The notes: a model not told the origin generated them from the sequence alone. A stretch of 64,000 nt of DNA from an uncultured Roseivirgaceae bacterium (GCA_964419145.1 CAYQOM010000002.1:726511-790510); one strand, 5' to 3'. Counted from the first letter of the stretch, positions 42,279 through 60,582 are shown. Program-made: numbers and translations.

Positions 42279-42578
42279 AAATGTAACGGGGTGGTCAATA
42301 ATACAAATGTTTGTTTGATCAGCTTTGCGGCAAATGTATTAGCTAGCTGTTTCTATTTAAAGCCTGAAAATCAATTTGCTGGAACGTTTTAAATTATTGC
42401 TCCTGGCAGATTAGAATTCTGTACAAATTTTTTGTCATGACCGTTGTTATCAATCATCCAGATTTTTTACAGTGACATAAATTTTTATCGATCGCGATAA
42501 CGATCATTGATTGAGCATAATTGTGCATATAAAATTGTGCTCGTAAGTAGAGTTGCTTACCGATGTAAAAAAACTTTT

Positions 42579-43754
42579 ATGAAAATCTCAAAAATCACAA
42601 CGTGGCTGAGCCTGGTAGTGATCAGCGCGTTACTCATCACAGCGTGTGAAAATGATTTGTTTAATGAATTCCCTGTAGGAGAACAGGGGGGAGGTGGTGG
42701 TAGAGGAGGAAGCGTAGCCGCAGCCGAGACAACTGTTGCTACTAACCTTTCATTTCCGGTTATCTGGTCAGAAGGTGTTACTAAAACATTGCGCATACCA
42801 CCGGCTGGCTATACAACTGAGATGTATAAAATTGGTGGCGATTGGTGGTATGTGTGGGGTGAGGATCCTATAGATCCACAAGCGCCATTATACAGCTGCC
42901 ATCCAGCCACAATGGGTGAGGAGTGCTTTGGTCCAGTTCCACCTGCTGACTTGTTTAAGGCCTACGTACAGAAGGATGCCAATAATTACTGGCAAGCTTA
43001 TGCGGCCAATGCAACGGATTTGATGAATATCGACTTGATTGACTGGGGCGATAATCTGGAATCAGTTCCTTGGACGTTGACCTCCAGGGTGAGAACTGAA
43101 GTGGTATTGTATGAAAATCTGCTGGAGCCTGTACGCGAATATGCCATGCGGCATGTTTATGGCTGGGGAACAGATGAACTGCACGGACTTCAGGCAACTA
43201 CAGAACAAAATCCTGTGCCCATATATGGCCCAGGTACACAAGCTACCGTATTTTCACCGCACGCCAGATTGACAATTCAAAAACTTGTTAGTGAAAATCC
43301 TGCTATTAGCTGGAATGCAGCTGCTCATGCATGGTCAGGAACTGATGTATTGCCTCCCGTTTTCAATAAAGCTGTATGGGAAGCTAGTGATGGCCCAGGT
43401 TATTATAATGCTGAAATCAATATTAAAGGCAAATTAATTTATGGCTATACCTGGGACGTTAAAAAAACAAATAATGGAGCCGGTACTTATCGCATTACGT
43501 TCAGCTTCGATGCCACGGGACCAGCAACTACATTGAATACCTTCTTTGATGGAAATTCTCAGGTTCTTCTTCCAGAAGAAATTGTGATTGAAGCCGAAGA
43601 AAGCCAAGGAGGAACAGCCTATATTGATATTGCCAATAACCTCACCTATATAGATGTTGTTATTTTACCTGGTAAAAGTGGTGGAGCTAAAGGTGGCGGT
43701 AACAGTGGTGGCGGTGGTAAAGGTGTTAAAGGTGATGGAAAACCTGTTAAGTAG
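42579..43754 (+). CDS. Orphan lipoprotein with Gly-rich N- and C-terminal tracts (hypothetical)
   Basis: The ATG at 42579 gives MKISKITTWLSLVVISALLITACEND (lipobox). It is followed by EQGGGGGRGGS, a ~330-aa Trp/Tyr-rich globular region, and the tail GKSGGAKGGGNSGGGGKGVKGDGKPVK. Confidence 0.5.
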   Translation: MKISKITTWLSLVVISALLITACENDLFNEFPVGEQGGGGGRGGSVAAAETTVATNLSFPVIWSEGVTKTLRIPPAGYTTEMYKIGGDWWYVWGEDPIDPQAPLYSCHPATMGEECFGPVPPADLFKAYVQKDANNYWQAYAANATDLMNIDLIDWGDNLESVPWTLTSRVRTEVVLYENLLEPVREYAMRHVYGWGTDELHGLQATTEQNPVPIYGPGTQATVFSPHARLTIQKLVSENPAISWNAAAHAWSGTDVLPPVFNKAVWEASDGPGYYNAEINIKGKLIYGYTWDVKKTNNGAGTYRITFSFDATGPATTLNTFFDGNSQVLLPEEIVIEAEESQGGTAYIDIANNLTYIDVVILPGKSGGAKGGGNSGGGGKGVKGDGKPVK

Positions 43755-43780: not shown

Positions 43781-43814
43781 AGCCCATATCATTTTGATAT
43801 GGGCTTGTTTTTTT
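43781..43814. terminator. Strong intrinsic terminator, usable in both directions
   Basis: agcccatatc-atttt-gatatgggct forms a perfect 10-bp stem followed by tgttttttt on the plus strand. On the minus strand it is followed by tattttatt. It sits between the convergent lipoprotein gene and the end of the transport supercluster. Confidence 0.8.
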
Positions 43815-43935: not shown

Positions 43936-44646
43936 TCACCCACTCACAAACTTCTCCCTGAACTGCAGGTTGAACATGCCATACAACAGGCAAAGCACGG
44001 TGAGTATCATAAGATAAAGCCTGTTCTTGTAAATAACCGTCAGCCAGATAAAGTCACTCATGCCCCGTGGTTCTGAGAAGGGGTTGAGAAAAACGTTGTA
44101 GGCGCTGTATTCCAGCAGCTCAAAAAAAATGAAAAATATGAACGACACGATCACCATCACGATAGCAGTCCCGTTGCCATTCTTGATCAAGGTAGATAGC
44201 ATAAAAGCCAGTGAGGATAGAAATGTGATGGGGAAGAGCACCTGACCGATCATGGGCAGAATGCTAAAGCGGTACAGCGTCAGGTCTGCCAGAACGCCCA
44301 GGATTACTAAAATGACAGCCGCGATTCCAATCGTCAAGAAAAACCGCACGAGCCATACTTTGTATCGGTAATTCGGAATACCAAAAATGGTTTCCAGCAT
44401 TTTGGAGTCATCGTCATTTTGAATACCATAAGCCATGGGGTAGAAGATGAGCAGCAATCCCGGGAAAACCAGGAAGCCGTATATCAGAGCTTCATTAAAG
44501 TCTGAATCACCTTCGAGGATTGTAATCAGGATGATGAATCCAAAGAATAAAAATGCTGCCACCACAAAGTAAACAAACTTGTTACCAAAAATTACTTTGA
44601 CGTTATAGGTTATCAACTTATATAACAGCAGGAGATAGCTCTTCAT
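43936..44646 (-). CDS. ABC-2-type transporter permease (6 TM), last gene of the supercluster
   Basis: 236 aa with six hydrophobic helices. Its start overlaps the stop of the RND::ABC fusion gene by 4 nt (ATGA). The family is inferred from topology and coupling to the NBD, not from a diagnostic motif. Confidence 0.6.
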   Translation of the reverse strand: MKSYLLLLYKLITYNVKVIFGNKFVYFVVAAFLFFGFIILITILEGDSDFNEALIYGFLVFPGLLLIFYPMAYGIQNDDDSKMLETIFGIPNYRYKVWLVRFFLTIGIAAVILVILGVLADLTLYRFSILPMIGQVLFPITFLSSLAFMLSTLIKNGNGTAIVMVIVSFIFFIFFELLEYSAYNVFLNPFSEPRGMSDFIWLTVIYKNRLYLMILTVLCLLYGMFNLQFREKFVSG

Positions 44647-47600
44647 ATTTTTTTCGTTTTACTTTTCATCAACCATAAGTAAGCATCCTCAAGATTTGCA
44701 CGCACGGAAACAGCATCGGCTCGTGGTATTTCATCAGATAAGCACTTCACCCGTATGCGATCACCTTCGCGCATATGATGAACGATCAGGTAGTTTTCTT
44801 TCTCCACTTCAAATTGTTCTGGAGTCAAATGGAACTCCCAAACTTTCTCATGCGCCAATTCGGCCATGGTTGTTGGGCTGCCAATATATTCGATATTGCC
44901 CGAGATGAGCACCGCCAGTTTGTTACAGCTGCTGGCAATGTCTTCAATGATGTGTGTAGAGAAGACCACGATCCGTTCACGACTAAGCTCCACAAGCAAA
45001 TTTCTGAATCGGATTCGTTCCAATGGATCAAGACCTGCAGTTGGCTCGTCCACCACCAATATCTTCGGTAGGTGAAGCAAGATTTGAGCAATGCCGATTC
45101 GTTGCTTCATACCACCAGAAAAGGAGCCGATCTTCTTATGCTGATGCTCATCCATGTGGACGGCTCTCAATACGTATTGCACACGCGCTTCGCGTTCCTT
45201 ATGATTGGATATCTTCCGTAAGATGGCCTGGTAATCCAGGAACTCATACGGTGTCATGTTTTCGTAGGTACCAAAAGCTTGAGGAAGATATCCGATGAGG
45301 CCCTGGAGTTCTTCTCTTCGTAACGTAGTGTCATGACCGTTAATCCAAATCTTACCGTAACTCTGATCCAGAATACCGCAGAGAATGCGCATCAGTGTTG
45401 TCTTGCCTGCGCCATTAGGTCCTAATAATCCGAACATGCCTTGTTCAATCGTGAGACTCGCACCTTTTAGTGCCTTGAACTCCGATTTCTTTGGTTTTAT
45501 AAAAGGAATGGCGAGCAATAGTGTATAGTATAGCCTTCTGATCTTCTTAAACCGCCCGGTGATCGCATTAACATCAACCGGTTTTTCCTTAAACCTTTCA
45601 GACACGCGCACGAAGTAAAGTCCCAGGAACCAAAGTAAGATCAGGATAATCCCGAATGCCTTGATCTGCACATCGCTGTATAAATAAACAGAGCTTACTA
45701 TTGGAAATCCCCAGTACAATAAAGTATAACTGATCCGCATCAACCTTTTTCTATAGGGAATCAATTGTTTGATGGTGTGGAAGATGGAGAGCGCCAGCAC
45801 ATGGAACAAGATCATAAAGACCAGTTGCCAGAATGCCTTATCCAAATGGAAATAAATAAAATAGACCAGGAAGGCGATCAAAGCACTTTGCCAGATCAAA
45901 TCTTGCAGAACCTTGCGCCATGTCACGGGTTCCTCACCGCGTGTTTCAAAGAGATTTTTGTTTCCTTTCCATTCCCTGATCCAACGCTTATCGCGACCGT
46001 ACACTTTTGTCAGGTTTTGGATCTTGATGTGCATGGCCTCACCGGGCGCAACCATTTTTGCATTCGCCTGGCGTAGGGAAGTCATAATGAAGTGTGTAGA
46101 ACCCGGAATTAGAATAATAGCGCCAATGAATGCGATCATCTGCAGGAGCAAGCCCTCCATGCGGAGTGATATAAAAACTCCTGCCGCAATCATGAGCGCG
46201 ATCTGGATGACCTTAATACTCGCTTTAAGATTCCTGAACCAGTGCAGCACACTTTCCAGCCCGGCACTCATTGTTGGGATATAGAAAAGAGTCAGTATCG
46301 TTGCAAAGGCAAGTCCGCCCATCACGGTAACGGCAAACGGCTGTCCAACGCTCACCACATACTCAGCTTCACCAAGGGCCAACGGCAGCATGGCAGTAAT
46401 CGTTGTGAGAGAGGTTATCATGATTGGCCGAACACGTGAAATGCCACTCATCATGAGCGCGCGATATTTCGAGTATCCTTCTCTTCGCAGGATGCGCGAA
46501 TAGTCGATGAGTATTATGCCATTGTTTACCACAACACCCAACAAAATCAGGAAACCGATCAAGGTGTTTGCACTTAACAATGAATTGCCGGTAAGCGTAA
46601 GACCCAAAAACGCGCCAATGGCGGCCAGGGGAATGGAGAACATGATCACAACGGGTAAGTACAACGACTCAAACACCGCAGCGAGGATCATGAAGATGAT
46701 AATGATGGCGGAAAAGATCAGAAAGTAGAATTCATCAAACAGTCCCTCATCATGAATCGCTTCAACTACGATGCCGGAAGGGATGTTGACACCAGCTACG
46801 ATCTGATCAATCTCTATTCGGGAGGCCTCGAGCAGGGATTCTGAATTCAAAACTTCATCAATAAAGGTATACGTGATTTGTATTCGTTTTTCCTGGTTTG
46901 AGCGGGTAATTGTGCTTTCACCGGATGAGTACAAGGCGTTACCAATTTCAGAAAATGAATGTGTAGCACCTGTTGTACTGCTCACTGGCATCTCACGCAA
47001 GTCGCGCATTTCCTTCGCGGTATTAACAACCTGATTTTGCGTGCGAATGGTTATTTCATAATCTTCGCCACCGCTGATAAAGTTGGAACCTGACTCGAAG
47101 GAAGGTTGAAAATCGTTAAGGGCCACCGCCACATTTTGTAACGTGATCTGATTCTCGCTCATTCGTTTTTGATCAAAGGCCAGGTGTGCCTCAGGACGCT
47201 CCGGACTCAGATTCATGGAATGCTGTTTGATGGACTGCAGACCACCAACCATCTTATTGATGTCGGTTGAGATAGACTGCATCAATTCAAAATCCTGACC
47301 TTTGATCACGATGCGCTCCGTAGGCGTTCCTATTCCCAACATCCGTTCAAAATCATTTTGGGCTGAACTACCGACACCACCTCCATCGCCACCACCATTT
47401 TGTACAGGAGGTCTATCGAGCGAGATGGTAACGTCATCAAAATCTTTGGAGATGCCTGTCAGTTGTTCGCGCACTTCGCCTACTGAAATAGTATCCAGGT
47501 CATTGAATCCGTCAACCAGTTTCACCGTTAGCACCGCATCCGTTTCGGAAACCTGACTGATCAATTCTTTAACCACTGGTATTCCCATCACCTTTTCTTC

Positions 47601-49352
47601 GATCTTCCTGATCCGCGCATCGCTCGATTTCAATGTGCTGCCTTGCGGCATGGTGACAAACATGTTCATCTCGGTAGATTCTACTTCAGAAGAACCCGCT
47701 ATACTGACCAAAAGACTAAGGCCGATTGAAACAAAAAACAAAACCAACCCAGCCATCACCGTAAACATGGGTCTGCGGAAGCAAGACTTCAGCAAAACCA
47801 TGTACATCTGGATAAGTCGCTGACGGATCGAGGCGTTCCGGATCAAAGGCGCTTTCTGTTGATCTTCTTTGCTTATGGCCGAGTCGGTCAACATGGGGAT
47901 GAGCACCAGGGCGACAACAAGTGAAACCAATAATGTGGCGATGATGGACACACCGATATGGGTGCCGATAAGCGTAACAAGAAAATTGGACGAGTAAATA
48001 AAAGGCAGAAACACAATTACGGTTGTGAGCGTACCCGCAATTACGGACCGCATGACCTCTTGTGTTCCCCGCACAACGGCTTCTTCGCGGTTCACTTTGT
48101 TCACCACATGACGATAAATGTTTTCGATGACCACCACACTGTTGTCTACCAACATGCCTATGGCCAGGGCCATTCCGATCAGCGTAAGGCTATTGATGGA
48201 GATGTCATATGCATAGAAGAAATTGAATGCAGCATAAACGGAGATCGGTATCGAGAGCGCTATGCTCAGGATGAATTTGATCCTGCGGAGAAATATCCAA
48301 AGAACAAATATGGCCAGCAGCCCACCCGTAATGGCCAGGTCTTTAATCGCATCAATATTGCGCGACATCATCTCGGCAGTATTATTTTGCACTACGATCT
48401 GTACATCCATGGGCTCCAGATCTTTGTTGATGACGTCAATAGCGTCAAGCGTTCTTTCCGATAGGGCAATCAGGTTAGCTTGCGGGTCTTTCGATATCCG
48501 GATCGAAACAGCATCTTTTCCATTAACCCGGCTCAGTGTAGTTTGCTCTTTTACTCCGAAGAATACATCGGCCACATCACTCAGCAGTAGCGGACCTTGC
48601 TCGGATACCACCAGGTTTTGAATGTTCTTAATGTCTTGTAATTCGGCTGTTACATGAACAAAAACTTTTTGTCCTTCCATGTGCACCTGCCCGGCAAAAG
48701 CACTCTTGTTCGCGTTCCGCGAGAGCACATTGCTGATCGTATTGGGTGTGATGCCGTTTGCCTCGCATATCGCATCATGCATGATGATCTCAACCGTCTT
48801 CTGCCGGCCGCCAAAAACTTCTACGCCACCCACACCGTCCACATCGTTTAATCGGTCAACTATGTATTGGTCAGCCATATTCCTGACGCGGTCAACTCCA
48901 CCGCTGCCCAGCACCTGAACATCCATAAATCCGTTGGTGAATTCTTCTGTATCGATCTTGATAATGTTCACCAGGAACTCAGGCGTAAGGCTCGACTTGA
49001 TCGCGCCAACCTTTTGCTCCAGTTTGAGGTAAGCGTATTTGATGTTAACGCCTTGCTGAAACGAAATGAAAATCATTCCCTGTTGGCTGTTGGCATTCGC
49101 GGTGATTTCAGCGACACCTTCAAGCGTACTGATGGCACTCTCCAGCGGCACGATAGCCTGACGTTCCATATACTTGGGGTCGACTTCCGTGGCTGATTGC
49201 ACCTGAACGATCAACACTGGCAATTCAACATTAGGGAACAGCTCAACGGCAAGCTTGGTATAGGAGATATAGCCCATGAAGGTCATACCGATGAACAACA
49301 TCGATACAAGCACTTTCCTCCGGATGATTGTCTTTAGCAAACTGTTACCCAT
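44643..49352 (-). CDS. RND efflux permease (AcrB-like, 12 TM) fused through extra TM helices to a complete ABC transporter ATP-binding domain
   Basis: A 1569-aa uninterrupted ORF.
- aa 1-~1032 are RND: the N-terminus is …IRRKVLVSMLFIGMTFMGYISYTKLAVELFPNVELP…, the TM4 motif is AIGMLVDNSVVVIENI and the TM10 motif is GVVVNNGIILIDY.
- aa ~1033-1106 are two extra TM helices.
- aa 1107-1122 read MHIKIQNLTKVYGRDK, the NBD strand 1.
- aa 1123-1291 are four more TM helices.
- aa 1292-1569 are the NBD core, with Walker A GPNGAGKT (45399-45422), Q-loop GYLPQ, signature FSGGMKQR, Walker B ILVVDEPTAGLD and H-loop FSTHI. Confidence 0.85.
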   Translation of the reverse strand: MGNSLLKTIIRRKVLVSMLFIGMTFMGYISYTKLAVELFPNVELPVLIVQVQSATEVDPKYMERQAIVPLESAISTLEGVAEITANANSQQGMIFISFQQGVNIKYAYLKLEQKVGAIKSSLTPEFLVNIIKIDTEEFTNGFMDVQVLGSGGVDRVRNMADQYIVDRLNDVDGVGGVEVFGGRQKTVEIIMHDAICEANGITPNTISNVLSRNANKSAFAGQVHMEGQKVFVHVTAELQDIKNIQNLVVSEQGPLLLSDVADVFFGVKEQTTLSRVNGKDAVSIRISKDPQANLIALSERTLDAIDVINKDLEPMDVQIVVQNNTAEMMSRNIDAIKDLAITGGLLAIFVLWIFLRRIKFILSIALSIPISVYAAFNFFYAYDISINSLTLIGMALAIGMLVDNSVVVIENIYRHVVNKVNREEAVVRGTQEVMRSVIAGTLTTVIVFLPFIYSSNFLVTLIGTHIGVSIIATLLVSLVVALVLIPMLTDSAISKEDQQKAPLIRNASIRQRLIQMYMVLLKSCFRRPMFTVMAGLVLFFVSIGLSLLVSIAGSSEVESTEMNMFVTMPQGSTLKSSDARIRKIEEKVMGIPVVKELISQVSETDAVLTVKLVDGFNDLDTISVGEVREQLTGISKDFDDVTISLDRPPVQNGGGDGGGVGSSAQNDFERMLGIGTPTERIVIKGQDFELMQSISTDINKMVGGLQSIKQHSMNLSPERPEAHLAFDQKRMSENQITLQNVAVALNDFQPSFESGSNFISGGEDYEITIRTQNQVVNTAKEMRDLREMPVSSTTGATHSFSEIGNALYSSGESTITRSNQEKRIQITYTFIDEVLNSESLLEASRIEIDQIVAGVNIPSGIVVEAIHDEGLFDEFYFLIFSAIIIIFMILAAVFESLYLPVVIMFSIPLAAIGAFLGLTLTGNSLLSANTLIGFLILLGVVVNNGIILIDYSRILRREGYSKYRALMMSGISRVRPIMITSLTTITAMLPLALGEAEYVVSVGQPFAVTVMGGLAFATILTLFYIPTMSAGLESVLHWFRNLKASIKVIQIALMIAAGVFISLRMEGLLLQMIAFIGAIILIPGSTHFIMTSLRQANAKMVAPGEAMHIKIQNLTKVYGRDKRWIREWKGNKNLFETRGEEPVTWRKVLQDLIWQSALIAFLVYFIYFHLDKAFWQLVFMILFHVLALSIFHTIKQLIPYRKRLMRISYTLLYWGFPIVSSVYLYSDVQIKAFGIILILLWFLGLYFVRVSERFKEKPVDVNAITGRFKKIRRLYYTLLLAIPFIKPKKSEFKALKGASLTIEQGMFGLLGPNGAGKTTLMRILCGILDQSYGKIWINGHDTTLRREELQGLIGYLPQAFGTYENMTPYEFLDYQAILRKISNHKEREARVQYVLRAVHMDEHQHKKIGSFSGGMKQRIGIAQILLHLPKILVVDEPTAGLDPLERIRFRNLLVELSRERIVVFSTHIIEDIASSCNKLAVLISGNIEYIGSPTTMAELAHEKVWEFHLTPEQFEVEKENYLIVHHMREGDRIRVKCLSDEIPRADAVSVRANLEDAYLWLMKSKTKKI

Positions 49353-52300
49353 GTGATACCGCTAACTTTTGTTTTTTCTTGCCACGGATCCGGCTGACAA
49401 TATTTTCTATGCTCTCGTAGTAGCAGGGGATGATCACGAGGGTCAAAAGTGTAGACGTAACCATGCCACCGATTACAGCAATAGCGATGGGTGCACGCAG
49501 TGCTGCGCTCTCTCCGAATCCCAACGTCAAGGGCAGCAGACCCAGAATGGTTGTCATGGTTGTCATCATGATCGGTCTGAGTCTGCGTTCTGCCGCGTCA
49601 AGAATGGCCTCGCGCAACGGCATGCCATTTTCCTTGTTCTGATTGATGCAATCCACAATCATAATGGAGTTGTTCACTGCAATGCCGCCCAACAAAATGA
49701 TGCCTATGAATCCCATCATGTTCAGCGGCATCCCCAGCACAAAGAAGGCGAGTATGGCACCTACTACTGCAAAGGGTATGGCCAGCAAAATGGTGAATGG
49801 ATGCAACAGCGATTCGAATTGAGAGGCAAGCACCATGTAAACCAATATGATGGATAGGATGAGTGCGAATGTTAAGTTCTGAACAGACTCCTGGCGTCTT
49901 ACTTCCTGGCCAGCTACTTTGATCTTGTATTGCGGGGGCACCGATAGTTTCGATAGCGAACTTTCAATTGATTTGACAACGCGATCATAGGGCTCGTCTT
50001 GATTCACACGGGCTCCGATCGTCACCGTTCGGGTTTGATCTTTTCTGTAAATGGAGTTGCTGGCATATTGAACATTTACCTGGGCGATCTCTGTTAAAGG
50101 AAATTCACGTTGGCCACTTTTGATCTTTATGTTTTGCAATCCTGCCAAAGAAACGCCAGGCACTTTTATTTTGATATCTTGTATTTCCCCACCGCGCTCA
50201 ATGGTTCCGGCTTGTTTGCCTTCCAGTTGGTCTTTAATCTGGGTAATGATTTCATCGATCGATAAATTGAAGATTCCGGCCCTGTATTTATCGATGTCAA
50301 CTTGAATCTGCGGCACGCCTTCCTCCAGGTTCGACACGGGATCAAACACGAGTTTGTTGGAAGTCATCGCGAGCATCACCGAATCGGAGAGGGGCTTTAG
50401 CTTTTCGAAATCTGCACCACTTACTTCAATTACCAGCGGCATTTGCTCGTCACCCATCACAGCGTAGAGTGCACTTTCATCATTGGAGAATGTAGCTTCC
50501 AGGCCAGGGATGGATTCAAAGTATGCTGAGAGTTTGGCCGTGACCGGGGCAATATCCAGTTCAATGTCTTCTTTGAATATCAGCTTGAGGTTAGCCTTGT
50601 TCTCATTGTATACGTTTTCATTCTTGATTCCCGATTGGCTTTGCTGAGGCCCGATGTGCGAATATATTTTGTCGATCTGTCCTTCAAACAATTGTTGAAG
50701 TTGCCCTTCGATCTGGCCAACCGTAGAAGAAGTTCGGGAAAGGGGAGTGCCGTTCGTCAACGTAATGTCCACAGAAATGGCACGTGTATCCGACTGGGGC
50801 ATGTATTCACTACCGATAATGGGAAGCAACAAAGCCGTACCCGCGATCATGACCAAGGATACCGTGATCCACGCTGTCTTGTGACCCAGCATTTTTTCGA
50901 GCAGTGACCGATACCATGGAAACCGTATATGTTTTTCATCAGCGAAAACTTTCTTCTCCTTGGCAAACACCTTGTCCTTTCTGAAAAATTGACTGAACAG
51001 CATCGGTATAACCAGGATGGCCACAAAGAGTGATGCGAACTGCGAGAACGCAACCGTCCACGCCTGATCTTTGAAGAGCTCACCGGAAGGGCCTTGCAGA
51101 TATACGATTGGCAAGAAAACAACAATACAGGTAAGCGTAGAAGCGGTGATCGCACCACTGACTTCACTTGTGCCTTCAATGGCAGCATCCATCACGCTCA
51201 ATCCTTCCTCTCGCTTTCGGAATATGTTCTCCACCACAACGATAGCGATGTCCACAAGCATACCTGCACTCAACGCCAATCCACCGAGTGTCATAACGTT
51301 CAGCGTGAGTCCATTGAAGTACATCAAATTGAATGTGGCAATGATGGAGATTGGGATCACCACACTGATGATGAGTGTAGAGCCAATTCTTCGCAGGAAA
51401 AGAAACAAGACAAGCACGGCAAAAAACACACCGAACAAACCGGATTCTTTCACCTCATCAATGGCGCCCTGGATAAACCTTCCCTGGTTTTGGATGATCA
51501 CAAACTCGTAACCGGGAACGGAAGTTTTTAACTTCTCCAGTGATGCCATCAGTTCATTGACCGCGTTAACGGTATTGTAATTGGTCTCTTTATAAATGGA
51601 CATTCCAATGCTTCGCTGCTGATTCACCCGAACAATACTGGTTGGCTCCTTATCTAAAGTCTTGATGGTGGCCACCTCCCGAAGTAAAACCGGAACCTGA
51701 TCGGATAAAGCAGGGGTGTTGTTGGTTGTAGTCGTAGTGGTTGTTGAAGGGAGTGCAGGTGAAGTGGTTGTTGCATTTTGACGACTGGTGTAGCCCACTA
51801 CTAACTCTTGCAAGTCTTCGGGCTTTGAAACAATGCCCAGGCCTTTGATCACATACTTTCTGCCCAACTCTTCAATAAACCCACCGGACACGCTTCGGTT
51901 ATAGTTTTGAATTTTAGTAACAAGGTCATTTACGGTCAGACCGTGAGCGGCCAGCAGGGCAGGATCGGTCTCCACCACCACTTCTTTCTCTAGCTCGCCT
52001 GACAAACGCACCTCAGCAATTCCCGGCAACTTGACCAACTCGTTCCTGAAATTATTCTCAGCCACACGTCTTAATGCATCGGTGTCATTAGACGCTGGAT
52101 TATATATCCCCAATATCATGACCGGAGCTGCATTCGGATCGAATTGCGAAATCACAAACTCCTCGATCTCATCGTTCAATGAAAATGCCGACAGTGATTT
52201 TTGAAGATCAAGGAATGCCTCGTCCATGTCCTTGCTCCAATCGTACTGTACGGTAACGCGGCCATAACCCGTTTGGCTCACCGAGCTTACTTCAACAGCA

Positions 52301-52530
52301 CCACTTTGCCGGATGGCAATGGATTCTATATTTTCAATAAACTGCTTCTCAACTTCCGAAGGTGGTTTGATACCCGCCTTGAGTTCAACGAATAACGTGG
52401 GATTCTTCATTTCCGGAACCAACTCAATGCCGAGTTTGTCGAATGAGATGAAACCCAATAGAATGACGGCCAAAACAAGCATCAGGATTGATACCGGGTA
52501 AGTGACCGCCAATGAGACTATCTTTTTCAC
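49345..52530 (-). CDS. RND efflux permease (AcrB/HAE-type), first of a tandem pair
   Basis: 1061 aa. The N-terminus is MKKIVSLAVTYPVSILMLVLAVILLGFISFDKLGIELVPE. The TM4 motif is SAGMLVDIAIVVVENI and the TM10 motif is GGIAVNNSIMIVDC. The two-fold repeat architecture is typical of the family. Its stop overlaps the RND::ABC start by 8 nt. Confidence 0.9.
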   Translation of the reverse strand: MKKIVSLAVTYPVSILMLVLAVILLGFISFDKLGIELVPEMKNPTLFVELKAGIKPPSEVEKQFIENIESIAIRQSGAVEVSSVSQTGYGRVTVQYDWSKDMDEAFLDLQKSLSAFSLNDEIEEFVISQFDPNAAPVMILGIYNPASNDTDALRRVAENNFRNELVKLPGIAEVRLSGELEKEVVVETDPALLAAHGLTVNDLVTKIQNYNRSVSGGFIEELGRKYVIKGLGIVSKPEDLQELVVGYTSRQNATTTSPALPSTTTTTTTNNTPALSDQVPVLLREVATIKTLDKEPTSIVRVNQQRSIGMSIYKETNYNTVNAVNELMASLEKLKTSVPGYEFVIIQNQGRFIQGAIDEVKESGLFGVFFAVLVLFLFLRRIGSTLIISVVIPISIIATFNLMYFNGLTLNVMTLGGLALSAGMLVDIAIVVVENIFRKREEGLSVMDAAIEGTSEVSGAITASTLTCIVVFLPIVYLQGPSGELFKDQAWTVAFSQFASLFVAILVIPMLFSQFFRKDKVFAKEKKVFADEKHIRFPWYRSLLEKMLGHKTAWITVSLVMIAGTALLLPIIGSEYMPQSDTRAISVDITLTNGTPLSRTSSTVGQIEGQLQQLFEGQIDKIYSHIGPQQSQSGIKNENVYNENKANLKLIFKEDIELDIAPVTAKLSAYFESIPGLEATFSNDESALYAVMGDEQMPLVIEVSGADFEKLKPLSDSVMLAMTSNKLVFDPVSNLEEGVPQIQVDIDKYRAGIFNLSIDEIITQIKDQLEGKQAGTIERGGEIQDIKIKVPGVSLAGLQNIKIKSGQREFPLTEIAQVNVQYASNSIYRKDQTRTVTIGARVNQDEPYDRVVKSIESSLSKLSVPPQYKIKVAGQEVRRQESVQNLTFALILSIILVYMVLASQFESLLHPFTILLAIPFAVVGAILAFFVLGMPLNMMGFIGIILLGGIAVNNSIMIVDCINQNKENGMPLREAILDAAERRLRPIMMTTMTTILGLLPLTLGFGESAALRAPIAIAVIGGMVTSTLLTLVIIPCYYESIENIVSRIRGKKKQKLAVSHG

Positions 52531-52548: not shown

Positions 52549-53607
52549 TTATTGAATAACGCTGACTTTCGATTTGTTTCTCAGGGTTTCAAAACCTGCG
52601 ACCACGAGCCGGTCATTGACCTTCAGCCCGTTGGTAACTTCGATTACATCGGCATTCTCCAGTCCGGTAGTTATTTTCTTTTCAGTTGCTATACCATTTT
52701 CTACGGTAAACACCACCTTACCATCTTGACGGGAGATAATGGTTTGTTTTGGGATAACGATGGTATTGTCACGTTTCTCAGATAGAATGAATGCTTTGAT
52801 AAACATGCCAGGTCGCAACGATCGTTTTGCATTGTTTATCTCCAGCACACTTTGAAACGTTCGGGTATCCGCATTAATGGCTGGGGAGATCTGGCTGATC
52901 TTCCCATAAATGGTATCGTTCGCTACATTATAGTTAGCAATTTGAACGGTCTGGTCCATCGTTACTTCAGGCAAATGTTTCTCAGGGAGCTTTACATCCA
53001 TCAACAGTTTATCGTATTGCATGATTTTTAAAAGCATCTGCCCTTGATCGATTTTTACGCCATTCGTGTGATACGGTAATTCTACAATCACTCCATCAAA
53101 GGGAGCGCGTATGGTCATCTTAGCCTGTTGTATCTCCGCATTCTCAAACGCATACTTGGCATTGACGTATGATATCGCAGCATTTTTTAATTCGGTTTGT
53201 GTAACACCGCCTTTGTCATACAAGGACTGTTGCTTCTTTAGATTATTGTCGGCAAGCTCGAGGTTGAGTCTCTTACCTTCCGTCTGAAGGTTGTTTTCAA
53301 ATTCCTTGTCTTCCAGTCGGATCAACACTTGTCCGGCTTTAACTGCATCGCCCAACGCGAAAGGTTTTCCGGTTGATGGATTACGTTGCAGTTGGTAAAC
53401 ACCACCAATCTCGGATTTCATGGCACCTTCCTTAAAGGCATACACGGTGCCTGTAGTTTCAATGAATCGGGAGATGCTCTGTGGCTTGATGCTTATCACC
53501 GACACGGGGATCTTGATCTCCGTTTTAATGTTTGCGTCTTCCGAGTTGCAGCTTGCCAGTGCAATCAATACCAGCAGGGGAAGGATTTCTTTAATATGCT
53601 TTTTCAT
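52549..53607 (-). CDS. Efflux RND periplasmic adaptor (membrane fusion protein), lipoprotein
   Basis: 352 aa with a lipobox (LIALASC). It has a lipoyl/hairpin pattern (…AGQVLIRLEDKEFENNL…coiled coil…TIRAPFDGVIVEL…) and a C-terminal beta-barrel. Confidence 0.85.
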   Translation of the reverse strand: MKKHIKEILPLLVLIALASCNSEDANIKTEIKIPVSVISIKPQSISRFIETTGTVYAFKEGAMKSEIGGVYQLQRNPSTGKPFALGDAVKAGQVLIRLEDKEFENNLQTEGKRLNLELADNNLKKQQSLYDKGGVTQTELKNAAISYVNAKYAFENAEIQQAKMTIRAPFDGVIVELPYHTNGVKIDQGQMLLKIMQYDKLLMDVKLPEKHLPEVTMDQTVQIANYNVANDTIYGKISQISPAINADTRTFQSVLEINNAKRSLRPGMFIKAFILSEKRDNTIVIPKQTIISRQDGKVVFTVENGIATEKKITTGLENADVIEVTNGLKVNDRLVVAGFETLRNKSKVSVIQ

Positions 53608-53636: not shown

Positions 53637-55148
53637 TTAATTTTTAGGGATAAGCACAGGCTCTTGTGTTTCAAAATCGTAAAGGGATTGAATCTTTAGG
53701 TTGAGCAATTCAATTTTATAGTTAATCAACGCATCGGCCAGTGCGCTCTTCTTTTCCGAAAGCTGGCTTTGAAATCTATTGAGATCGATACTGGTCAGGT
53801 CGCCATTCTTGTATCGCTCAAGATTCAAGTCGTAGGTCAACGTGGCGTTCTTTACATTTTGTTGAGCGATGGTTATTTGATTTTCCAGATTTTGCAGGTT
53901 CCGGTAAATCTTCCTTATACTGATGATGATGTTATTTTTTTCTACATCCAGGTCAACTTTCCTTATCTCGAGTGAGGTGTTGGTTGCGTCCATTCGTGCC
54001 CTGTTCTCACCCCAGTCGAAGATGGGTATGCTAAAGGAAATGGCTACTCGCGGATTAACGGCAGGCGACTCATACACCATAGGCGCGCGCTCGTTATCAC
54101 CAAAAACAGCTAATGACAAGCTCACCGAACCTTTAAATTCATTCAACGCCTTCGTTCGAATTAATTCAAACTGCGATCGCTCAATGTCTATCGAACGCTG
54201 TCGCAATTCCATTCTGTTGTCCAGTCCAAACTGAAGTGCTTGGTTTAAGTCCACTTTCCGGGTAATAAAATCAATGTTCACCTCAACGGCTACTTGTTCA
54301 GTCAAGTCCATGCCGAGTAAAAGTTTGAAGTCATCGGCAGCATTATCGAGCAATACCTGATTGGTTTCCATGGTCGACTTGGATGTGGCCAGGTTGAGTT
54401 CGGCCTGATAAAGTTCTTCTTGCGCCAGCAGGTCAGCGTCTACTTTGTTCTTCGTGATTTCGTAACTGATTCTCTGATTCTCATATTCATCTTTCGAAAT
54501 CTGGAGCGTGTTCTGTCGCTGGTAAAAAGTATAAAACGACTGCGTAACGCTTTGTTCCAAGCTTAATAATTGCAATGAATTGCTGATGGTGGCATTCTCC
54601 AGGTTCAACTCCAGTTCCTTTAACTGAATCTTTGTTCGGTTGTATGTAAAGATGGGCTGGTCTAATTGAAGATATAAGTTGTTGCTGTACGTCTTGGTTC
54701 GGACATCCTGAAACTCGGAATAGTTATCTCTGTACCCAAACCGGTTGATTAACGATATGCGGCCATCGGTTGCCAAAATGGGCTGGCTCACTGAAAAATT
54801 GGCGAATGAATTATAGTCTCTGTTTGTGTTCCATAGCGAAAACAAATCGTTGAACATCCGGCTCTGGTTGAAATCGAACGGGGTAACGTCTAACGCGAAC
54901 TTTGACTTTAAAGCCGCGCGTTGAGCATCCAGGCTGCGCTGACTACCATACAGATTCAACATTGATTTTTTTATGTTTAGACTGCTCTGCTGTGCAATCT
55001 TAATCGCTTCGTTCAGCGTGAGTTTACGCTGCGCGTTCGCGCTCGTCCAGCTAAGTACGATGCATGCCAGCAAGAGAAATCCAGTTGTTAAACGCACGAA
55101 TCGTCTATTGTTCCATTTCATTGTTTTCCTTAAACCCATGTGATTCAA
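53637..55148 (-). CDS. TolC-family outer membrane efflux protein
   Basis: 503 aa with a signal peptide (…VLSWTSANAQ). The start LTLNEAIKIAQQSSLNIKKS is typical of the family. The internal duplication of long helical segments is consistent with an OEP/TolC fold. Confidence 0.8.
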   Translation of the reverse strand: MNHMGLRKTMKWNNRRFVRLTTGFLLLACIVLSWTSANAQRKLTLNEAIKIAQQSSLNIKKSMLNLYGSQRSLDAQRAALKSKFALDVTPFDFNQSRMFNDLFSLWNTNRDYNSFANFSVSQPILATDGRISLINRFGYRDNYSEFQDVRTKTYSNNLYLQLDQPIFTYNRTKIQLKELELNLENATISNSLQLLSLEQSVTQSFYTFYQRQNTLQISKDEYENQRISYEITKNKVDADLLAQEELYQAELNLATSKSTMETNQVLLDNAADDFKLLLGMDLTEQVAVEVNIDFITRKVDLNQALQFGLDNRMELRQRSIDIERSQFELIRTKALNEFKGSVSLSLAVFGDNERAPMVYESPAVNPRVAISFSIPIFDWGENRARMDATNTSLEIRKVDLDVEKNNIIISIRKIYRNLQNLENQITIAQQNVKNATLTYDLNLERYKNGDLTSIDLNRFQSQLSEKKSALADALINYKIELLNLKIQSLYDFETQEPVLIPKN

Positions 55149-55198: not shown

Positions 55199-58100
55199 TC
55201 ATTGCTTAACCCACTTCACCGCATCCGCATACACAGTCCAGAGCTCGCACTCATCCGTCAACGAAACACTGCCACCGGTTTTATTGAAATAATACGAACC
55301 CAGATAATTCCAGCCCGGCTCTGCATTTGTGATATTGTACTTGAGGTTGTCCGTTCCATCGGCATTTTGAATGATATAGTTGTAATCGAATTGCTTGCCT
55401 TCAGCACTGCGACCCGTCCAGGTGTTTTGGTTTTTGCCGCGCATGTATACATACAAATCGTAGAAGCCAGCCTCTTTCAATTCAGCAGTCCACGTGGCGA
55501 CCTTTTCACCATTTCCCGACCTTGTGAAATGTGCCGAGCGGATAATACTACCAAAAAAATCAGATCCCGTGGTGGCCAGCCAACTCGAGTATGAGCTATC
55601 CCACTCGCCATAGTACTTCTGCTCGGTGGCTTTTCGGCTATCCATGTAGGCTTTCAACACCGTGGGCTTGATAGGACTGAAGCTGCTGAAACCGGAATCC
55701 TCATTGTCAACGATTACTTCATATTGAATCGGGACTTCTTCTTTGTCAACAACCCGTTCACCATCAAATAGAATTCCGCCCGCGCGGCTAGACAAAGTTC
55801 CCATAGATATGTTGATTACAGAGGGAATATTTCTTGAAATGATAGTATTGATAGTGAGTGAATTCGGTTTTTCATCGAGCAAAAAGCCAAGAAGCTTCGT
55901 CTCGCCTTGCTTGATTACCGAAAGTTTCCCCGGAGCTTCTTCTTCAACGTCCTCATTCACCTTGTTGTAATACTCATCATCATCCGTGTTTTGCTTGCTG
56001 TTGAACTTTACTTCCAGTACACCATCACTATCACCCGAATTTTTCACTTTCACCAGCACTTGATACCGTTTTCGGTCAACGTCTGTTACCTCATATTTCT
56101 GAATATCCAGAATTTCGAAAGCTGGTTGAGAAGTTTCTGAATACACTTCGCGGATAACCGGGTCAATATCAATTTGAAATCGCGAAAGCATCGCTTTCCG
56201 GAAATCCTGATAATCGCTTAGTTGATGTTGATGGTTGTTTACCCAATCGTATAAGAAAGTTTTGAATTGGGTTTCACCCATGGTGTTGCCCAGGTAGGAG
56301 AAGAGGTACTGGCTTTTCAGCGTTACCGCTTTGTTGATTTTGCTGAACTCTGCCTCCGTCAGGATTTTCGTCATTGAAGTAGTGTGCATCAGGTTGTTGC
56401 ATTCCTCCGTGAACGAGATTCCGTTCATGGACCGGGTATAGTCGTTCTGAACTTGTTTGTCATTTCTAAGGTAAGTGGCCATACTCCGGTTTAGCAGCGG
56501 CCAATCCCGACTCACTACACCTGAATTGAAATCATAATAAATAGGAAAGAGAGAATAGTCAGCATTGTCGAAATCCTGACCTTCATTCACCCATCTTTCT
56601 CCAATTTGTTTGGTGAAAACTTTCCGTACCAAATCGTTAAAGACATTGGCTTGTTTCTGTTTGTCTGTGAGCACTTGATTTGTTTTGGCAGCTTGCGTAT
56701 TCATGTCCAGGAGTTGCCGCCTGAAATCGAACTGCCGTATTTCACCACCTTCTTCCGGCCAGAAAACTGTTTCGGGTTGGATAAATGCCATGTGACTCTC
56801 GTATATTTTTCTGTAAGCCGTAAGCATCATGGGCACTTCAACAAACTGCATCCTTTTGAAAGGATACTTGAGTTGTTGCGCGTCTTCATATTCAGTGGCT
56901 ACATCGGTAATCAGGTAGCTGAGTGTATCGCCCAGTTGATTGAGTTGCTTCACGAAGAAATCATTCTTTGGATAATGAAATACTGAATAGGTGATGCTAT
57001 CCACTACGATCTCTTTTTTTGCATAAGCACCAATAACAAGTGAGATGTGCGGCAGCGGATATTCAGGCTTGAAGTGGTAGGTATCTCCCACGAGCACAAC
57101 TTCTCCTTGTGAAATAGGCGTTTGGCCGGCAGGAGCTTTAACCATCAATTCAAACGTGATGAAGGATTGTCTCTCTTTAGCTGCCGATTCTTTATTATAA
57201 CCAACTTCTGTGTCTGGATACCAAAGCACATCTTTGGTTAGCAATACATAATCATCCTCCAGAAAACCATACTTCTTGGGTAAGGAAAACATAAAGTGGT
57301 CATTCGCAGTTTCATAGCGTTTTTGATCAACTTCAAGATGCGCGACTGATTCCAATACCGAACCATGGTATTGAATCTGAACTTTTGTTTCAGCATCCGG
57401 TTCAAGGGCAACACCCTGGCTTATGGAAATAATTTGTAAGTCTCTTGTAAACTCGGTGGGTTTATCGTTCAGGAGTACGGCATCAACAGTAAGACCGGGA
57501 TTCAATGTGAAATAGATCGTATCAAGCCGCTCACTCGTATTATTTCTTACCCGCATGTTCGAATGGCTAACAATCTCATTGCCGACCCACTCCAATTCGA
57601 TGGTATGTGAGTTTATCTCAGCGTTTGGCTTATTTATCCACCGGCCGTTAACTGCTATCATCTCTTGCCGCATATCCATGGAGCTTTGCCGCATGTTCCA
57701 GAGATTGAACATGATAAAAGAGGATAGTAGAAGCAGCGCGGCACCCACTACAGCCGTAGCCCGATGTGAGGTCTTGTGGCCGGCCAATCGGTCCAGTAGA
57801 AATGCCGTGATGAAAAGAAACGCGATGCCTGTAATCAAATAGAATGTGCGTTGCCACAGCGCAAATTCAATATCGATGAAGCCCGTCATCTCGGAAGCCA
57901 GCATGGAAAGCCGAAACGAAGTGAAATCCAGGATGTTTGAAAACTTATCGAAATAATAAATCAACTGAACGCCAGCTAAACCAATAAGCAACACGATGGA
58001 GATCGGTTGATTTCGGATAACGGTTACCAACAGAAATGCTATACCTGTTGTAAATACAATACTGGGAACGCTCGTGAGCAACGGATAAATAAGGAAAGCC

Positions 58101-58531
58101 GTTGGGTTGATGGTAGCAAGCGGATTGGTCAGCCCCACAATCAATGGTATGCAAAGTAAAACGAGATTTAAAAGGAAGAAGAGTTTAAAGAGCGCCAATG
58201 CCTTCCCCAGAACGTAATCCAGGTTGGATATCGGTCGAACAAAAAAGACTTCATTGGTATCCAGTTTTTTATCTTTCTTCACTAACCCGGTTGCTAAAAA
58301 GATAACAGCAGCGGCCTGGGGTATGCTGATCATCAACAAGCTGGAATAGGGAAGCACCCAGCCGTTGGCCAACTCGCTCCACCGTGGCGTACCGATAGCA
58401 GAAAACACCGCTAAGTTGAAAATCGTGAGGAAGAAAATACCGGCCAAGGCAACAATCCTGAAAAACCAATTTCGCCACAACACCCTGGACTCGAATGCAG
58501 CAATCGTCAATATGTTTTTAACCGACATCAT
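55199..58531 (-). CDS. ABC-2-type permease (7 TM) fused to a large (~820 aa) periplasmic domain, possibly M1-aminopeptidase-like but lacking HExxH
   Basis: 1110 aa. The first ~290 aa contain seven hydrophobic helices, which should place the remainder outside the cytoplasm. The following region (…NSHTIELEWVGNEIVSHSNMRVRN…IYFTLNPGLTVDAV…) resembles the N-terminal beta domain of M1 peptidases. I found no HExxH anywhere in the translation. The C-terminal ~130 aa form a beta-rich module (…GFYDLYVYMRG…PGWNYLGSYYF…). The start overlaps the ATPase stop by 4 nt. Confidence 0.6.
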   Translation of the reverse strand: MMSVKNILTIAAFESRVLWRNWFFRIVALAGIFFLTIFNLAVFSAIGTPRWSELANGWVLPYSSLLMISIPQAAAVIFLATGLVKKDKKLDTNEVFFVRPISNLDYVLGKALALFKLFFLLNLVLLCIPLIVGLTNPLATINPTAFLIYPLLTSVPSIVFTTGIAFLLVTVIRNQPISIVLLIGLAGVQLIYYFDKFSNILDFTSFRLSMLASEMTGFIDIEFALWQRTFYLITGIAFLFITAFLLDRLAGHKTSHRATAVVGAALLLLSSFIMFNLWNMRQSSMDMRQEMIAVNGRWINKPNAEINSHTIELEWVGNEIVSHSNMRVRNNTSERLDTIYFTLNPGLTVDAVLLNDKPTEFTRDLQIISISQGVALEPDAETKVQIQYHGSVLESVAHLEVDQKRYETANDHFMFSLPKKYGFLEDDYVLLTKDVLWYPDTEVGYNKESAAKERQSFITFELMVKAPAGQTPISQGEVVLVGDTYHFKPEYPLPHISLVIGAYAKKEIVVDSITYSVFHYPKNDFFVKQLNQLGDTLSYLITDVATEYEDAQQLKYPFKRMQFVEVPMMLTAYRKIYESHMAFIQPETVFWPEEGGEIRQFDFRRQLLDMNTQAAKTNQVLTDKQKQANVFNDLVRKVFTKQIGERWVNEGQDFDNADYSLFPIYYDFNSGVVSRDWPLLNRSMATYLRNDKQVQNDYTRSMNGISFTEECNNLMHTTSMTKILTEAEFSKINKAVTLKSQYLFSYLGNTMGETQFKTFLYDWVNNHQHQLSDYQDFRKAMLSRFQIDIDPVIREVYSETSQPAFEILDIQKYEVTDVDRKRYQVLVKVKNSGDSDGVLEVKFNSKQNTDDDEYYNKVNEDVEEEAPGKLSVIKQGETKLLGFLLDEKPNSLTINTIISRNIPSVINISMGTLSSRAGGILFDGERVVDKEEVPIQYEVIVDNEDSGFSSFSPIKPTVLKAYMDSRKATEQKYYGEWDSSYSSWLATTGSDFFGSIIRSAHFTRSGNGEKVATWTAELKEAGFYDLYVYMRGKNQNTWTGRSAEGKQFDYNYIIQNADGTDNLKYNITNAEPGWNYLGSYYFNKTGGSVSLTDECELWTVYADAVKWVKQ

Positions 58532-60234: not shown

Positions 60235-60581
60235 GATTCAAGATGTTTTTTTAACTCTTCGGCACTGATGCCGAGCAGGGCTGCCTGCCTGAGAAATTCG
60301 GGTAAGACTTTATTGAAGAATTCCTGCTTCTTGTCTTTGAGAATAATGGTTTTCGCTTCGGGATTTACGAAGTACCCGATGCCTCGTTGATTTTCAATAA
60401 TGTTCATTGCCTGAAGTTCACTATAGGTACGCATAACGGTATTCGGATTCACACCCATTTCAGCAGCCAGTTCCCTCACAGAAGGTATCTTTTCACCAGC
60501 AGGAAACTCGCCACTCACCACTTTCTCGGTAATGGTATCTGCTATCTGCAGAAAAATGCTTTTGCCTTCTTGAAAATGCAT
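60231..60581 (-). CDS. GntR-family transcriptional regulator, YtrA subfamily
   Basis: 116 aa. The winged HTH is …GEKIPSVRELAAEMGVNPNTVMRTYSELQAMNIIENQRGIGYFV…. The short helical C-terminus is typical of YtrA-type regulators. Confidence 0.85.
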   Translation of the reverse strand: MHFQEGKSIFLQIADTITEKVVSGEFPAGEKIPSVRELAAEMGVNPNTVMRTYSELQAMNIIENQRGIGYFVNPEAKTIILKDKKQEFFNKVLPEFLRQAALLGISAEELKKHLES

Positions 60582-60582
60582 A

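Follow-up and report, generated by a model that had tools for sequence, protein, structure and literature searches.

Does an open reading frame that joins a complete resistance-nodulation-division (RND) pump to a complete ATP-binding cassette (ABC) ATPase encode a genuine protein, and to what kind of transporter would such a protein belong? This question is raised by a 64,000-nucleotide (nt) stretch of DNA from an uncultured Roseivirgaceae bacterium (GCA_964419145.1, CAYQOM010000002.1:726511-790510; hereafter the window), in which a first reading of the DNA alone had proposed such a fusion (hereafter the original prediction). RND pumps are ion-driven trimers that capture substrates from the periplasm or the outer leaflet, and ABC exporters are ATP-driven dimers that capture substrates from the cytoplasm or the inner leaflet. 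The two are treated as separate solutions to efflux, and cooperation between them is normally described as kinetic, not physical. Comparative sequence analysis suggests that the frame most likely encodes a genuine and ancient fusion protein, one subunit of a multi-component export machine of the cell envelope.

The fusion gene (44643-49352, minus strand, as are all its parts below) runs uninterrupted from ATG to TGA and encodes 1569 amino acids (aa). Both Pfam domains are found on this one polypeptide, ACR_tran at aa 6-1028 (E 2.7e-151) and ABC_tran at aa 1295-1439 (E 7.9e-29), confirming the predicted joining of RND and ABC parts in a single frame. The RND body (46257-49352, aa 1-1032) comprises 12 transmembrane (TM) helices and two periplasmic loops, and ends with TLFYIPTMSAGL (aa 1021-1032). 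It is followed by an extra TM hairpin (46077-46223, aa 1044-1092), whose two helices are connected by a periplasmic turn of three residues and which contains the stretches IKVIQIALMIAAGVFISL (aa 1046-1063) and LLLQMIAFIGAIILIPGSTHFIM (aa 1068-1090). The detached first β-strand (β1) and A-loop of the nucleotide-binding domain (NBD), MHIKIQNLTKVYG (45996-46034, aa 1107-1119), come next, as the start of the segment MHIKIQNLTKVYGRDK (aa 1107-1122; its ATG at 46032-46034). A 4-TM insertion (45585-45920, aa 1145-1256) then lies inside the NBD, between strands β1 and β2, and the remaining NBD, which by sequence matches the ABC-2 (DrrA/GldA/ABCA-like) class, and a C-terminal domain (together 44646-45497, aa 1286-1569) complete the protein. 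The catalytic motifs of an ABC ATPase are all present and canonical: Walker A GPNGAGKT (aa 1311-1318, with K1317), the Q-loop GYLPQ (aa 1354-1358, Q1358), the signature FSGGMKQR (aa 1411-1418, S1412), Walker B with the catalytic Glu and the D-loop ILVVDEPTAGLD (aa 1431-1442, D1435/E1436), and the H-loop FSTHI (aa 1464-1468, H1467). They are invariant in 48 family sequences of 28-88% identity. Every motif quoted in the original prediction was located at the residues given here, including the loops KQLIPYRKRLMR (aa 1195-1206) and RVSERFKEKP (aa 1249-1258) and the Met of MHIKIQNLTKVYGRDK at aa 1107. The RND periplasmic domain of the fusion also carries a Gly-rich low-complexity insert, PPVQNGGGDGGGVGSS (aa ~655-672, window ~47340-47390).

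The fusion is widely conserved. In a full-length search, all of the 120 matches listed contain both Pfam domains and are 1516-1585 aa long (nearly all 1550-1585 aa), with 74-99% identity; some of them come from complete chromosomes of 4-6 Mb, and the complete genomes include Marivirga, Fulvivirga and Imperialibacter. When one genome per species was scanned, the non-RND tail was found in 54 species-level genomes at 69-91% identity (69-85% where the whole tail is covered), with Chryseotalea, Chryseolinea, Chryseosolibacter, Ohtaekwangia, Fulvivirga, Marivirga, Imperialibacter, Xanthovirga, Marinoscillum and Ekhidna among the carriers. A single in-frame tblastn segment covers the RND part, the linker and the NBD in 54/54 of these genomes, and 39 loci, as well as the window, have an open frame of at least 4500 nt. 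Between closely related loci, the ratio of nonsynonymous to synonymous substitution rates (dN/dS) is 0.02-0.06 for the RND part, 0.01-0.12 for the 2-TM hairpin, 0.05-0.13 for the 4-TM insert, and 0.02-0.04 for the NBD. The low values in the linker indicate that it is translated in the fusion frame and is under constraint.

More distant relatives were found by an exhaustive HMMER search with the tail against 1.84 billion cluster representatives. This search gave 26 further full-length representatives of the long form (50% clusters, 1550-1601 aa), whose RND parts are down to 23-29% identical and whose NBDs are down to 41-50% identical, and the layout of 2 + 4 extra TM helices is present in all of them. 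It also gave a second, short-linker class of 1389-1451 aa (hereafter the short form). Named distant members include a Rikenellaceae metagenome-assembled genome (MAG), candidate division KSB1, Acidobacteriota MAGs and two cultured Microbulbifer strains (Gammaproteobacteria), and the fusion is spread over at least four bacterial phyla; divergent members, at 23-50% identity, are present in Bacteroidota too. The 120 listed close matches and the 26 distant long-form members are homologues of at least 1400 aa with both ACR_tran and ABC_tran, for which the original prediction had proposed a search.

The original prediction had also named a stop or frameshift between the two parts, or orthologues encoded as separate genes, as observations that would speak against it. 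The counterpart loci keep the frame open, and the search of the 1.84 billion representatives did not turn up any unfused orthologue of the long-form tail. Two apparent stand-alone tails are fragments at contig ends: P0134 (526 aa) comes from a contig of 2.4 kb and falls into one cluster with a 1567-aa protein, and P0183 (301 aa) lies on a 979-nt contig and is without β1. A separate TM-NBD protein starting at M1107 was rejected as well, as Met is found at this position in only 22/48 homologues. At only one locus, L070 (300-3433, with the tail P0212), does gene calling give two overlapping genes, one for the RND part and one for the tail. This low-coverage long-read contig, with the parts in different frames, is what would favor an artefact, be it misassembly, loss of a stop codon, or a pseudogene that reads from an RND gene into a neighboring ABC gene. 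However, the two frames meet at a homopolymer run (GGG/GGGG), and the contig is labelled 2x. The split is therefore probably due to a sequencing indel, and a split orthologue was rejected. Set against 54 genomes with one frame, more than 120 clusters, several phyla and dN/dS values of at most 0.13 in all segments, linker included, an artefact is hardly credible, and a purposeful fusion is supported as predicted.

The AlphaFold2 (AF2) model of the tail (aa 1033-1569, from a 48-sequence alignment) is confident, with a pLDDT of 86.6 and a pTM of 0.74. In this model the hairpin helices span aa 1044-1064 and 1068-1092 (tail residues 12-32 and 36-60), and the inserted helices span aa 1145-1169, 1173-1197, 1202-1227 and 1231-1256 (tail residues 113-137, 141-165, 170-195 and 199-224), joined by turns of 3-4 residues. 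An 11-residue β-strand (aa 1108-1118, tail residues 76-86) is located between the two TM groups and is followed by a short amphipathic helix; another short helix lies between the 4-TM insert and the NBD. Hydropathy and AF2 agree on two plus four extra TM helices, and by per-helix scoring on the alignment each of the six is long and hydrophobic enough for a TM helix in 44-48 of the 48 family members, with the hairpin helices hydrophobic in 48/48. The third inserted helix is moderately hydrophobic here (best 19-residue Kyte-Doolittle window 1.1); it is predicted to be helical and is conserved in 46/48 members. These results support the 18-TM layout of the original prediction.

The hairpin is predicted to return the chain to the cytoplasm, and the charge distribution agrees with this topology. 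Over the 48 sequences, the mean number of Lys and Arg residues is 0.5, 0.6 and 1.1 in the three periplasmic turns, and 2.9, 13.0, 3.9 and 11.3 in the successive cytoplasmic segments (2.9 and 3.9 in the short loops, 13.0 and 11.3 in the long ones). The positive-inside argument, made earlier from one sequence, is therefore upheld across the family. The parity of the topology is maintained too, both in the conserved 2 + 4 layout and in the short form, which is without extra TM helices and keeps parity because it has no hydrophobic segment between RND TM12 and the NBD.

The NBD is complete yet non-contiguous. The A-loop aromatic residue does not lie on a β1 contiguous with the rest of the domain; instead, β1 is parted from β2 by ~165 residues that include the four TM helices. 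Models of contiguous NBDs begin to match the fused NBD only at model position 5-15. After in silico removal of aa 1123-1284, ~12 independent NBD family models reach position 1-2 and gain 3-9 bits, the score of the GldA model rising from 171.3 to 180.5 bits. The detached strand is conserved, with K1116 invariant, L1114 present in 44/48 sequences, and an aromatic residue at position 1118 in 48/48 (Tyr in 46, Phe in 2). Y1118 occupies what we take, from NBD architecture, to be the A-loop aromatic position. DSSP assigns aa 1108-1118 of the AF2 model to a strand and places all other strands within the NBD, so according to the model this strand would have to pair with the NBD sheet. The splice test, the conservation and the modelled strand all argue for the split first NBD strand that had been proposed.

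The site of the insertion has a counterpart in a known protein. In CFTR, the β-subdomain of the NBD carries a regulatory insertion of ~30 aa between its first two strands (PMC2217481). The sites in CFTR NBD1 and in the fusion are equivalent (β1-β2), but the CFTR insertion is soluble and disordered, whereas that of the fusion is ~165 aa long and contains four TM helices. To our knowledge, no four-helix TM insertion has been described at the β1-β2 site of an NBD.

By sequence, the fused NBD clearly matches the ABC-2/type V class at the class level, with no equivalog threshold reached. Among the NCBIfam models, GldA scores highest at 167 bits (cut-off 402.6), followed by DrrA at 155 bits (cut-off 312), and the score is below every curated equivalog cut-off. 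The nearest sequences in the PDB are the NBDs of ABCA3/1/7/4 together with 4yer and 1vpl, and the fold matches are 4yer, 1vpl, LptB and NosF. The fused NBD has a C-terminal domain of ~100 aa, which resembles the regulatory domains of TM_1403, NosF and MetN-type NBDs. This resemblance, and the use of the β1-β2 site for the regulatory insertion of CFTR (PMC2217481), would fit a regulatory ATPase, which responds to cellular ATP or to a bound ligand by gating or assembling the RND pump and itself transports nothing. We regard this as very improbable. The hydrolytic motifs, including the catalytic Glu and the H-loop His, are invariant in 48 divergent sequences, and a translationally coupled ABC-2-like permease is always present.

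The RND body has a full-length RND architecture, covering positions 2-1016 of 1021 in the ACR_tran model. It also covers positions 3-1004 of 1009 in the NCBIfam model RND_permease_2, but scores 436 bits against a cut-off of 1250. The nearest solved RND structure is that of MdtB (9lyq, E 2.5e-64). To analyze the energy relay, plain and fused RND members of the family (the plain RND is encoded next to the fusion, see below) were aligned with Escherichia coli AcrB, MdtB and MdtC. The fusion has D403-N404 in TM4, N943 in TM10 and R975 in TM11 at the positions of AcrB D407-D408, K940 and R971, respectively. The equivalents of D407 (D403) and R971 (R975) are kept in all plain and fused members. None of them has D408, which mostly gives way to Asn, or K940, where Asn is found throughout. 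With these two residues replaced, proton coupling is not assured. It is plausible from the sequences that the RND part is ion-coupled through the TM4 Asp and the TM11 Arg.

These replacements could also be read as a loss of proton coupling, with the tethered NBDs driving the RND cycle through the linker by MacB-like mechanotransmission and the small permease serving as a mere scaffold for NBD dimerization. The substitutions are found in every family member, and six conserved helices, four of them within the NBD fold, wire the NBD into the membrane in an unusual and constrained manner, both in keeping with an ATP-driven RND cycle. However, the unfused plain RND has the same substitutions, so they are a subfamily trait unrelated to the gain of the ATPase, and we rejected them as a signature of the fusion. 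The D407 and R971 equivalents are conserved, the two dedicated ABC-2-like permeases and the second NBD of the cassette are the usual parts of an independent ABC exporter, and in the short form the NBD is attached without any membrane linker. We therefore consider an ATP-driven RND unlikely.

The fusion belongs to a tightly packed operon on the minus strand, with overlaps or gaps of at most 50 nt, in the order free NBD, large protein, outer-membrane factor (OMF), membrane fusion protein (MFP), plain RND, fusion, small permease. The original prediction had described the fusion gene; the cassette of 6-7 genes with a free NBD, two ABC-2-like permeases and a plain RND, and the short-linker form, go beyond it. 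The free NBD (58528-59418) is an ABC-2-class protein of 296 aa with canonical motifs and without the insertion. It is 41% identical to the fused NBD in the window; across lineages the free and fused NBDs share 33-45% identity, as compared to 22-29% with another ABC-2 NBD in the window. On these identity values, with the topology of a neighbor-joining tree (raw p-distances) left unused, the free NBD is a paralogue of the fused NBD. The large partner (55199-58531) has 1110 aa, with seven N-terminal TM segments and an extracytoplasmic region of ~800 aa. Its N-terminal TM region and those of its homologues give repeated sub-threshold matches to ABC2_membrane, and its extracytoplasmic region consists of an M1-peptidase-like part followed by a Golvesin_C/CBM-like end. 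A catalytic M1-peptidase role was rejected, as neither HExxH nor GxMEN is present in any of five homologues. Neither a PDB sequence relative nor an NCBIfam model was found for the large partner.

The tripartite RND components are encoded in the same operon. The OMF, a TolC-like protein of 503 aa (53637-55148), matches Pfam OEP (E 2.6e-32) and, below the cutoff, TIGR01844. The MFP, a periplasmic adaptor of 352 aa (52549-53607), matches Pfam HlyD_D23 and reaches 203 bits on TIGR01730 (RND_mfp; cutoff 94.9). The fusion is thus accompanied by a cognate MFP and OMF, as in tripartite RND systems. The plain RND (49345-52530) has 1061 aa and is 25% identical to the fused RND, and the two paralogues share one MFP, as in heteromeric RND pumps, the loci L062 and L063 being exceptions in the family. 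The ATG of the fusion overlaps the stop of the plain RND gene by 8 nt. In the periplasmic domain of the plain RND there is a Thr/Ser/Pro-rich low-complexity stretch, TTTSPALPSTTTTTTTNNTPALS (aa ~244-268, window ~51730-51800).

The small partner (43936-44646), of 236 aa and six TM helices, is a putative, divergent ABC-2 (type V) permease, and is translationally coupled to the fusion, whose TGA shares an ATGA overlap with its ATG. It has no Pfam match, is labelled 'hypothetical' everywhere, and gave nothing in a profile search of PDB sequences. It can be aligned over its entire length with distant counterparts matching ABC2_membrane_2 (E 1e-8) and, weakly, ABC2_membrane_3/5. Its predicted secondary structure includes an N-terminal helix and, after TM2, a short cytoplasmic helix with an invariant Glu. 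Its low-confidence model, from an alignment of near-identical sequences, matches almost only transmembrane domains (TMDs) of type V transporters, including NosY, PmtD, ABCG2/5/8/25, ABCA3/4/7 and CcmB, at weak E-values, which is no more than suggestive of a type V TMD. No match to FtsX or MacB_PCD was found in the fusion, the small permease or the scanned upstream genes of the cassette. A bidirectional hairpin resembling an intrinsic terminator, with an 11-bp stem (43781-43805), closes the operon after the small permease; apart from it, promoter and terminator scans were at chance level.

The cassette is conserved together with the fusion, with the plain RND immediately upstream and the small permease downstream of it, apart from the exceptions given below. 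The order OMF-MFP-RND-fusion-permease is kept in 40 Cytophagales-type loci, and the large protein is directly upstream of the OMF in 38/38 close loci with enough flank, with the free NBD also upstream. Among Cytophagales genera, the OMF, the MFP, the two RNDs and the small permease are 65-88% identical and the large protein is 51-80% identical; the component identity of 65-88% suggests a housekeeping envelope role in Cytophagales. A core of six genes (free NBD, large protein, MFP, plain RND, fusion and small permease) is found in the same order in an Acidobacteriota MAG, in cultured Microbulbifer and in a very distant metagenomic member, and in the Rikenellaceae MAG with an OMF in addition. 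The KSB1 locus has the order MFP-RND-fusion-permease. The full cassette is not obligatory, as neither a plain RND nor an MFP is found nearby at L062, which has only the fusion and an ABC-2 permease, or at L063, where the short form stands alone.

At the short-form locus L059/L060 (586-16192), a fusion of 1441 aa lacks the extra TM helices and has a soluble insert of ~40 aa at the β1-β2 site. The genes of L059 are re-ordered, as MFP, free NBD, ABC-2 permease, plain RND, a 902-aa homologue of the large protein, fusion and OEP, and BLAST identifies the free NBD, plain RND, large protein and fusion as orthologues. In this layout the free NBD is next to the small permease, and the large protein is next to the fusion, which mildly favors a joint heterodimeric ABC module. 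The plain RND and the plain RND of the short-form locus share 35% identity, while cross comparisons of plain and fused RNDs give 25-27%. Each RND is closer to its own short-form counterpart, so the RND duplication appears to predate the split between the linker forms.

It could be argued that the fusion is only a tether, in which two independent transporters are joined for co-expression, co-localization or stoichiometry, with neither hand-over of substrate nor energetic coupling. Fusions of pathway partners are common, each domain looks self-sufficient, and the sparse loci L062 and L063 fit such a tether. However, the fusion, plain RND, MFP, permeases and free NBD keep their order in three or more phyla at 20-50% identity, and the linker helices are retained under purifying selection. 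That the HMMER search gave no unfused orthologue of the long-form tail also speaks against a simple tether, which we judge quite unlikely.

What machine might these parts form? The NBD, the permease and the RND are each present as a pair, with one plain and one special copy. We lean, by somewhat more than an even chance, towards an ABC-2 exporter that the fusion would tie to a tripartite RND pump of heteromeric type, with export in two stages. The two paralogous NBDs (free and fused) and the two permeases would form the ABC-2/type V exporter, and the fusion would hold it against a heteromeric RND trimer of plain and fused protomers, as in MdtB2C. The ATP-driven module would move an amphipathic substrate out of the cytoplasm or the inner leaflet, and the RND/MFP/OMF module would then expel it across the outer membrane. 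We infer the mixed heterotrimer of plain and fused RND by analogy with the MdtB2C1 heterotrimer, a precedent for mixed RND trimers (PMC7015380). Such a trimer could reconcile the three-fold symmetry of the RND with the two-fold symmetry of the ABC module, as the NBD of one fused protomer might pair with the free NBD, or two fused protomers might pair together. A further precedent is that inner-membrane pumps are reported to cooperate with tripartite pumps (PMC4338810).

Tighter integration is also conceivable. A heterodimeric type V ABC transporter, made of the fused and free NBDs and the small and large permeases, might be built into the mixed RND trimer as a single hybrid primary/secondary trans-envelope exporter. 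In it, substrate from the cytoplasm or inner leaflet would pass straight into the ion-driven RND porter, loaded there by ATP hydrolysis, and the four inserted TM helices would transmit the nucleotide state to the membrane domains. We hold this only tentatively, with the balance leaning against it.

Several observations weigh against a tethered ABC-2 exporter working with the RND pump. The canonical relay residues D408 and K940 are replaced (N404 and N943). The docking of β1 relies on the DSSP assignment of the AF2 model, the model of the small permease is of low confidence (pLDDT 57.6) with fold matches at E ≥ 0.08, and the Pfam/NCBIfam matches of both permeases are below curated cut-offs. The KSB1 locus is without the free NBD and the large permease upstream, and L062 and L063 are without a nearby plain RND or MFP, as described above. 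We also note that the physical and functional coupling, the stoichiometry, the substrate and the energy use in our proposal are all inferred.

Comparison with known systems helps to place the cassette. In having two adjacent RND paralogues and one MFP, it resembles MdtABC-TolC and MuxABC-OpmB, and the Bacteroidota cassette also includes the OMF; the MdtB2C1 trimer is a precedent for mixing the two RNDs. It differs from the Mdt/Mux pumps in that the plain and fused RNDs are only 25% identical, and from MdtB and MdtC in that these have neither an ATPase nor extra TM helices and carry DD/K at the relay positions, where the cassette RNDs have D-N/N. The likeness to the Mdt pumps is not established orthology. 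The ABC part resembles DrrAB, NosFY, PmtCD, GldAFG, ABCG and ABCA in the class of its NBD and in the separate ~6-TM permease gene directly after the NBD. ABC-2/type V exporters of the DrrAB and NosFY types, however, have free and contiguous NBDs, whereas here the NBD is attached to an RND and its β1 is split off by the 4-TM insert; the permeases of the cassette are also too divergent for Pfam thresholds.

Other transporters share single features with the cassette. MacAB-TolC and YbhGFSR, the latter of ABC-2 type, combine an ABC ATPase with an MFP and an OMF into envelope-spanning systems. Both are without an RND component, unlike the cassette. MacB has an N-terminal NBD, its own FtsX-type TMD of four TM helices and a periplasmic domain, whereas the NBD of the fusion is C-terminal, and the fusion is thus not of MacB type. 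In ArsAB, a secondary carrier becomes ATP-driven once it is bound to its ATPase. The likeness to ArsAB, a secondary-transporter membrane protein with an ATPase, is conceptual, as the families are unrelated, the association is non-covalent, and there is no tripartite envelope assembly. We found no description of an RND-ABC fusion in open-access papers and bioRxiv. The parts are of known kinds (RND permease, ABC-2 NBD and permease, MFP and OMF), but their assembly matches no described system and is apparently undescribed.

These findings have consequences for annotation and for transporter biology. Database labels for the fusion are 'efflux RND transporter permease subunit' (NCBI) and two COG names (JGI), and under the present annotation neither the ATPase nor the system as a whole is visible to surveys of efflux and resistomes. 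The conserved RND-NBD fusion with fixed partners in at least four phyla would imply a physical super-complex. Such a complex would make physical the cooperation between inner-membrane and tripartite pumps that has been described (PMC4338810). It raises the questions of how three-fold and two-fold symmetries are combined, whether ATP and an ion gradient can both be used by one assembly, and what an NBD gains from four TM helices between β1 and β2. These questions are directly testable because the family occurs in cultured Marivirga, Fulvivirga, Chryseotalea and Microbulbifer. Should the hybrid exporter exist, it would be the first known transporter that combines both energy sources in one assembly, and the first with an NBD bearing a membrane-embedded insertion. 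One dual-energy machine made of these parts, a possibility that we rate below even, would come close to a new category.

Further observations were made at individual loci. In Microbulbifer sp. TYP-18 (L067, 1-20075), genes for non-ribosomal peptide synthetases lie on both sides of the six-gene cassette, with a PP-binding/Condensation protein upstream, and a 1544-aa Condensation-AMP-binding-Pyridoxal_deC-PP-binding protein and then an esterase downstream. This neighborhood hints at a peptide-like or lipopeptide metabolite as the substrate in Microbulbifer. In Marivirga, Fulvivirga and relatives (L014-L020, L022, L024 and L027, at about 11600-12530), the fusion and small permease genes do not overlap and are instead separated by 170-930 nt of apparently non-coding DNA. 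The spacer of L019 contains two repeat copies, and these spacers may be inserted repetitive elements.

In the window, the cassette is flanked on both sides by other genes. A 415-aa predicted lipoprotein (42507-43754, plus strand; …LLITAC…), Gly-rich and of low complexity near both ends and without a Pfam match, converges on the cassette and shares its bidirectional terminator at 43781-43805. Just upstream of the cassette (59545-62191, minus strand) is an ABC-2-like pair, a 276-aa NBD and a 262-aa protein without a Pfam match. This NBD is only ~23% identical to those of the cassette, and a DUF2807/DUF4097 protein lies between the pair and the cassette.

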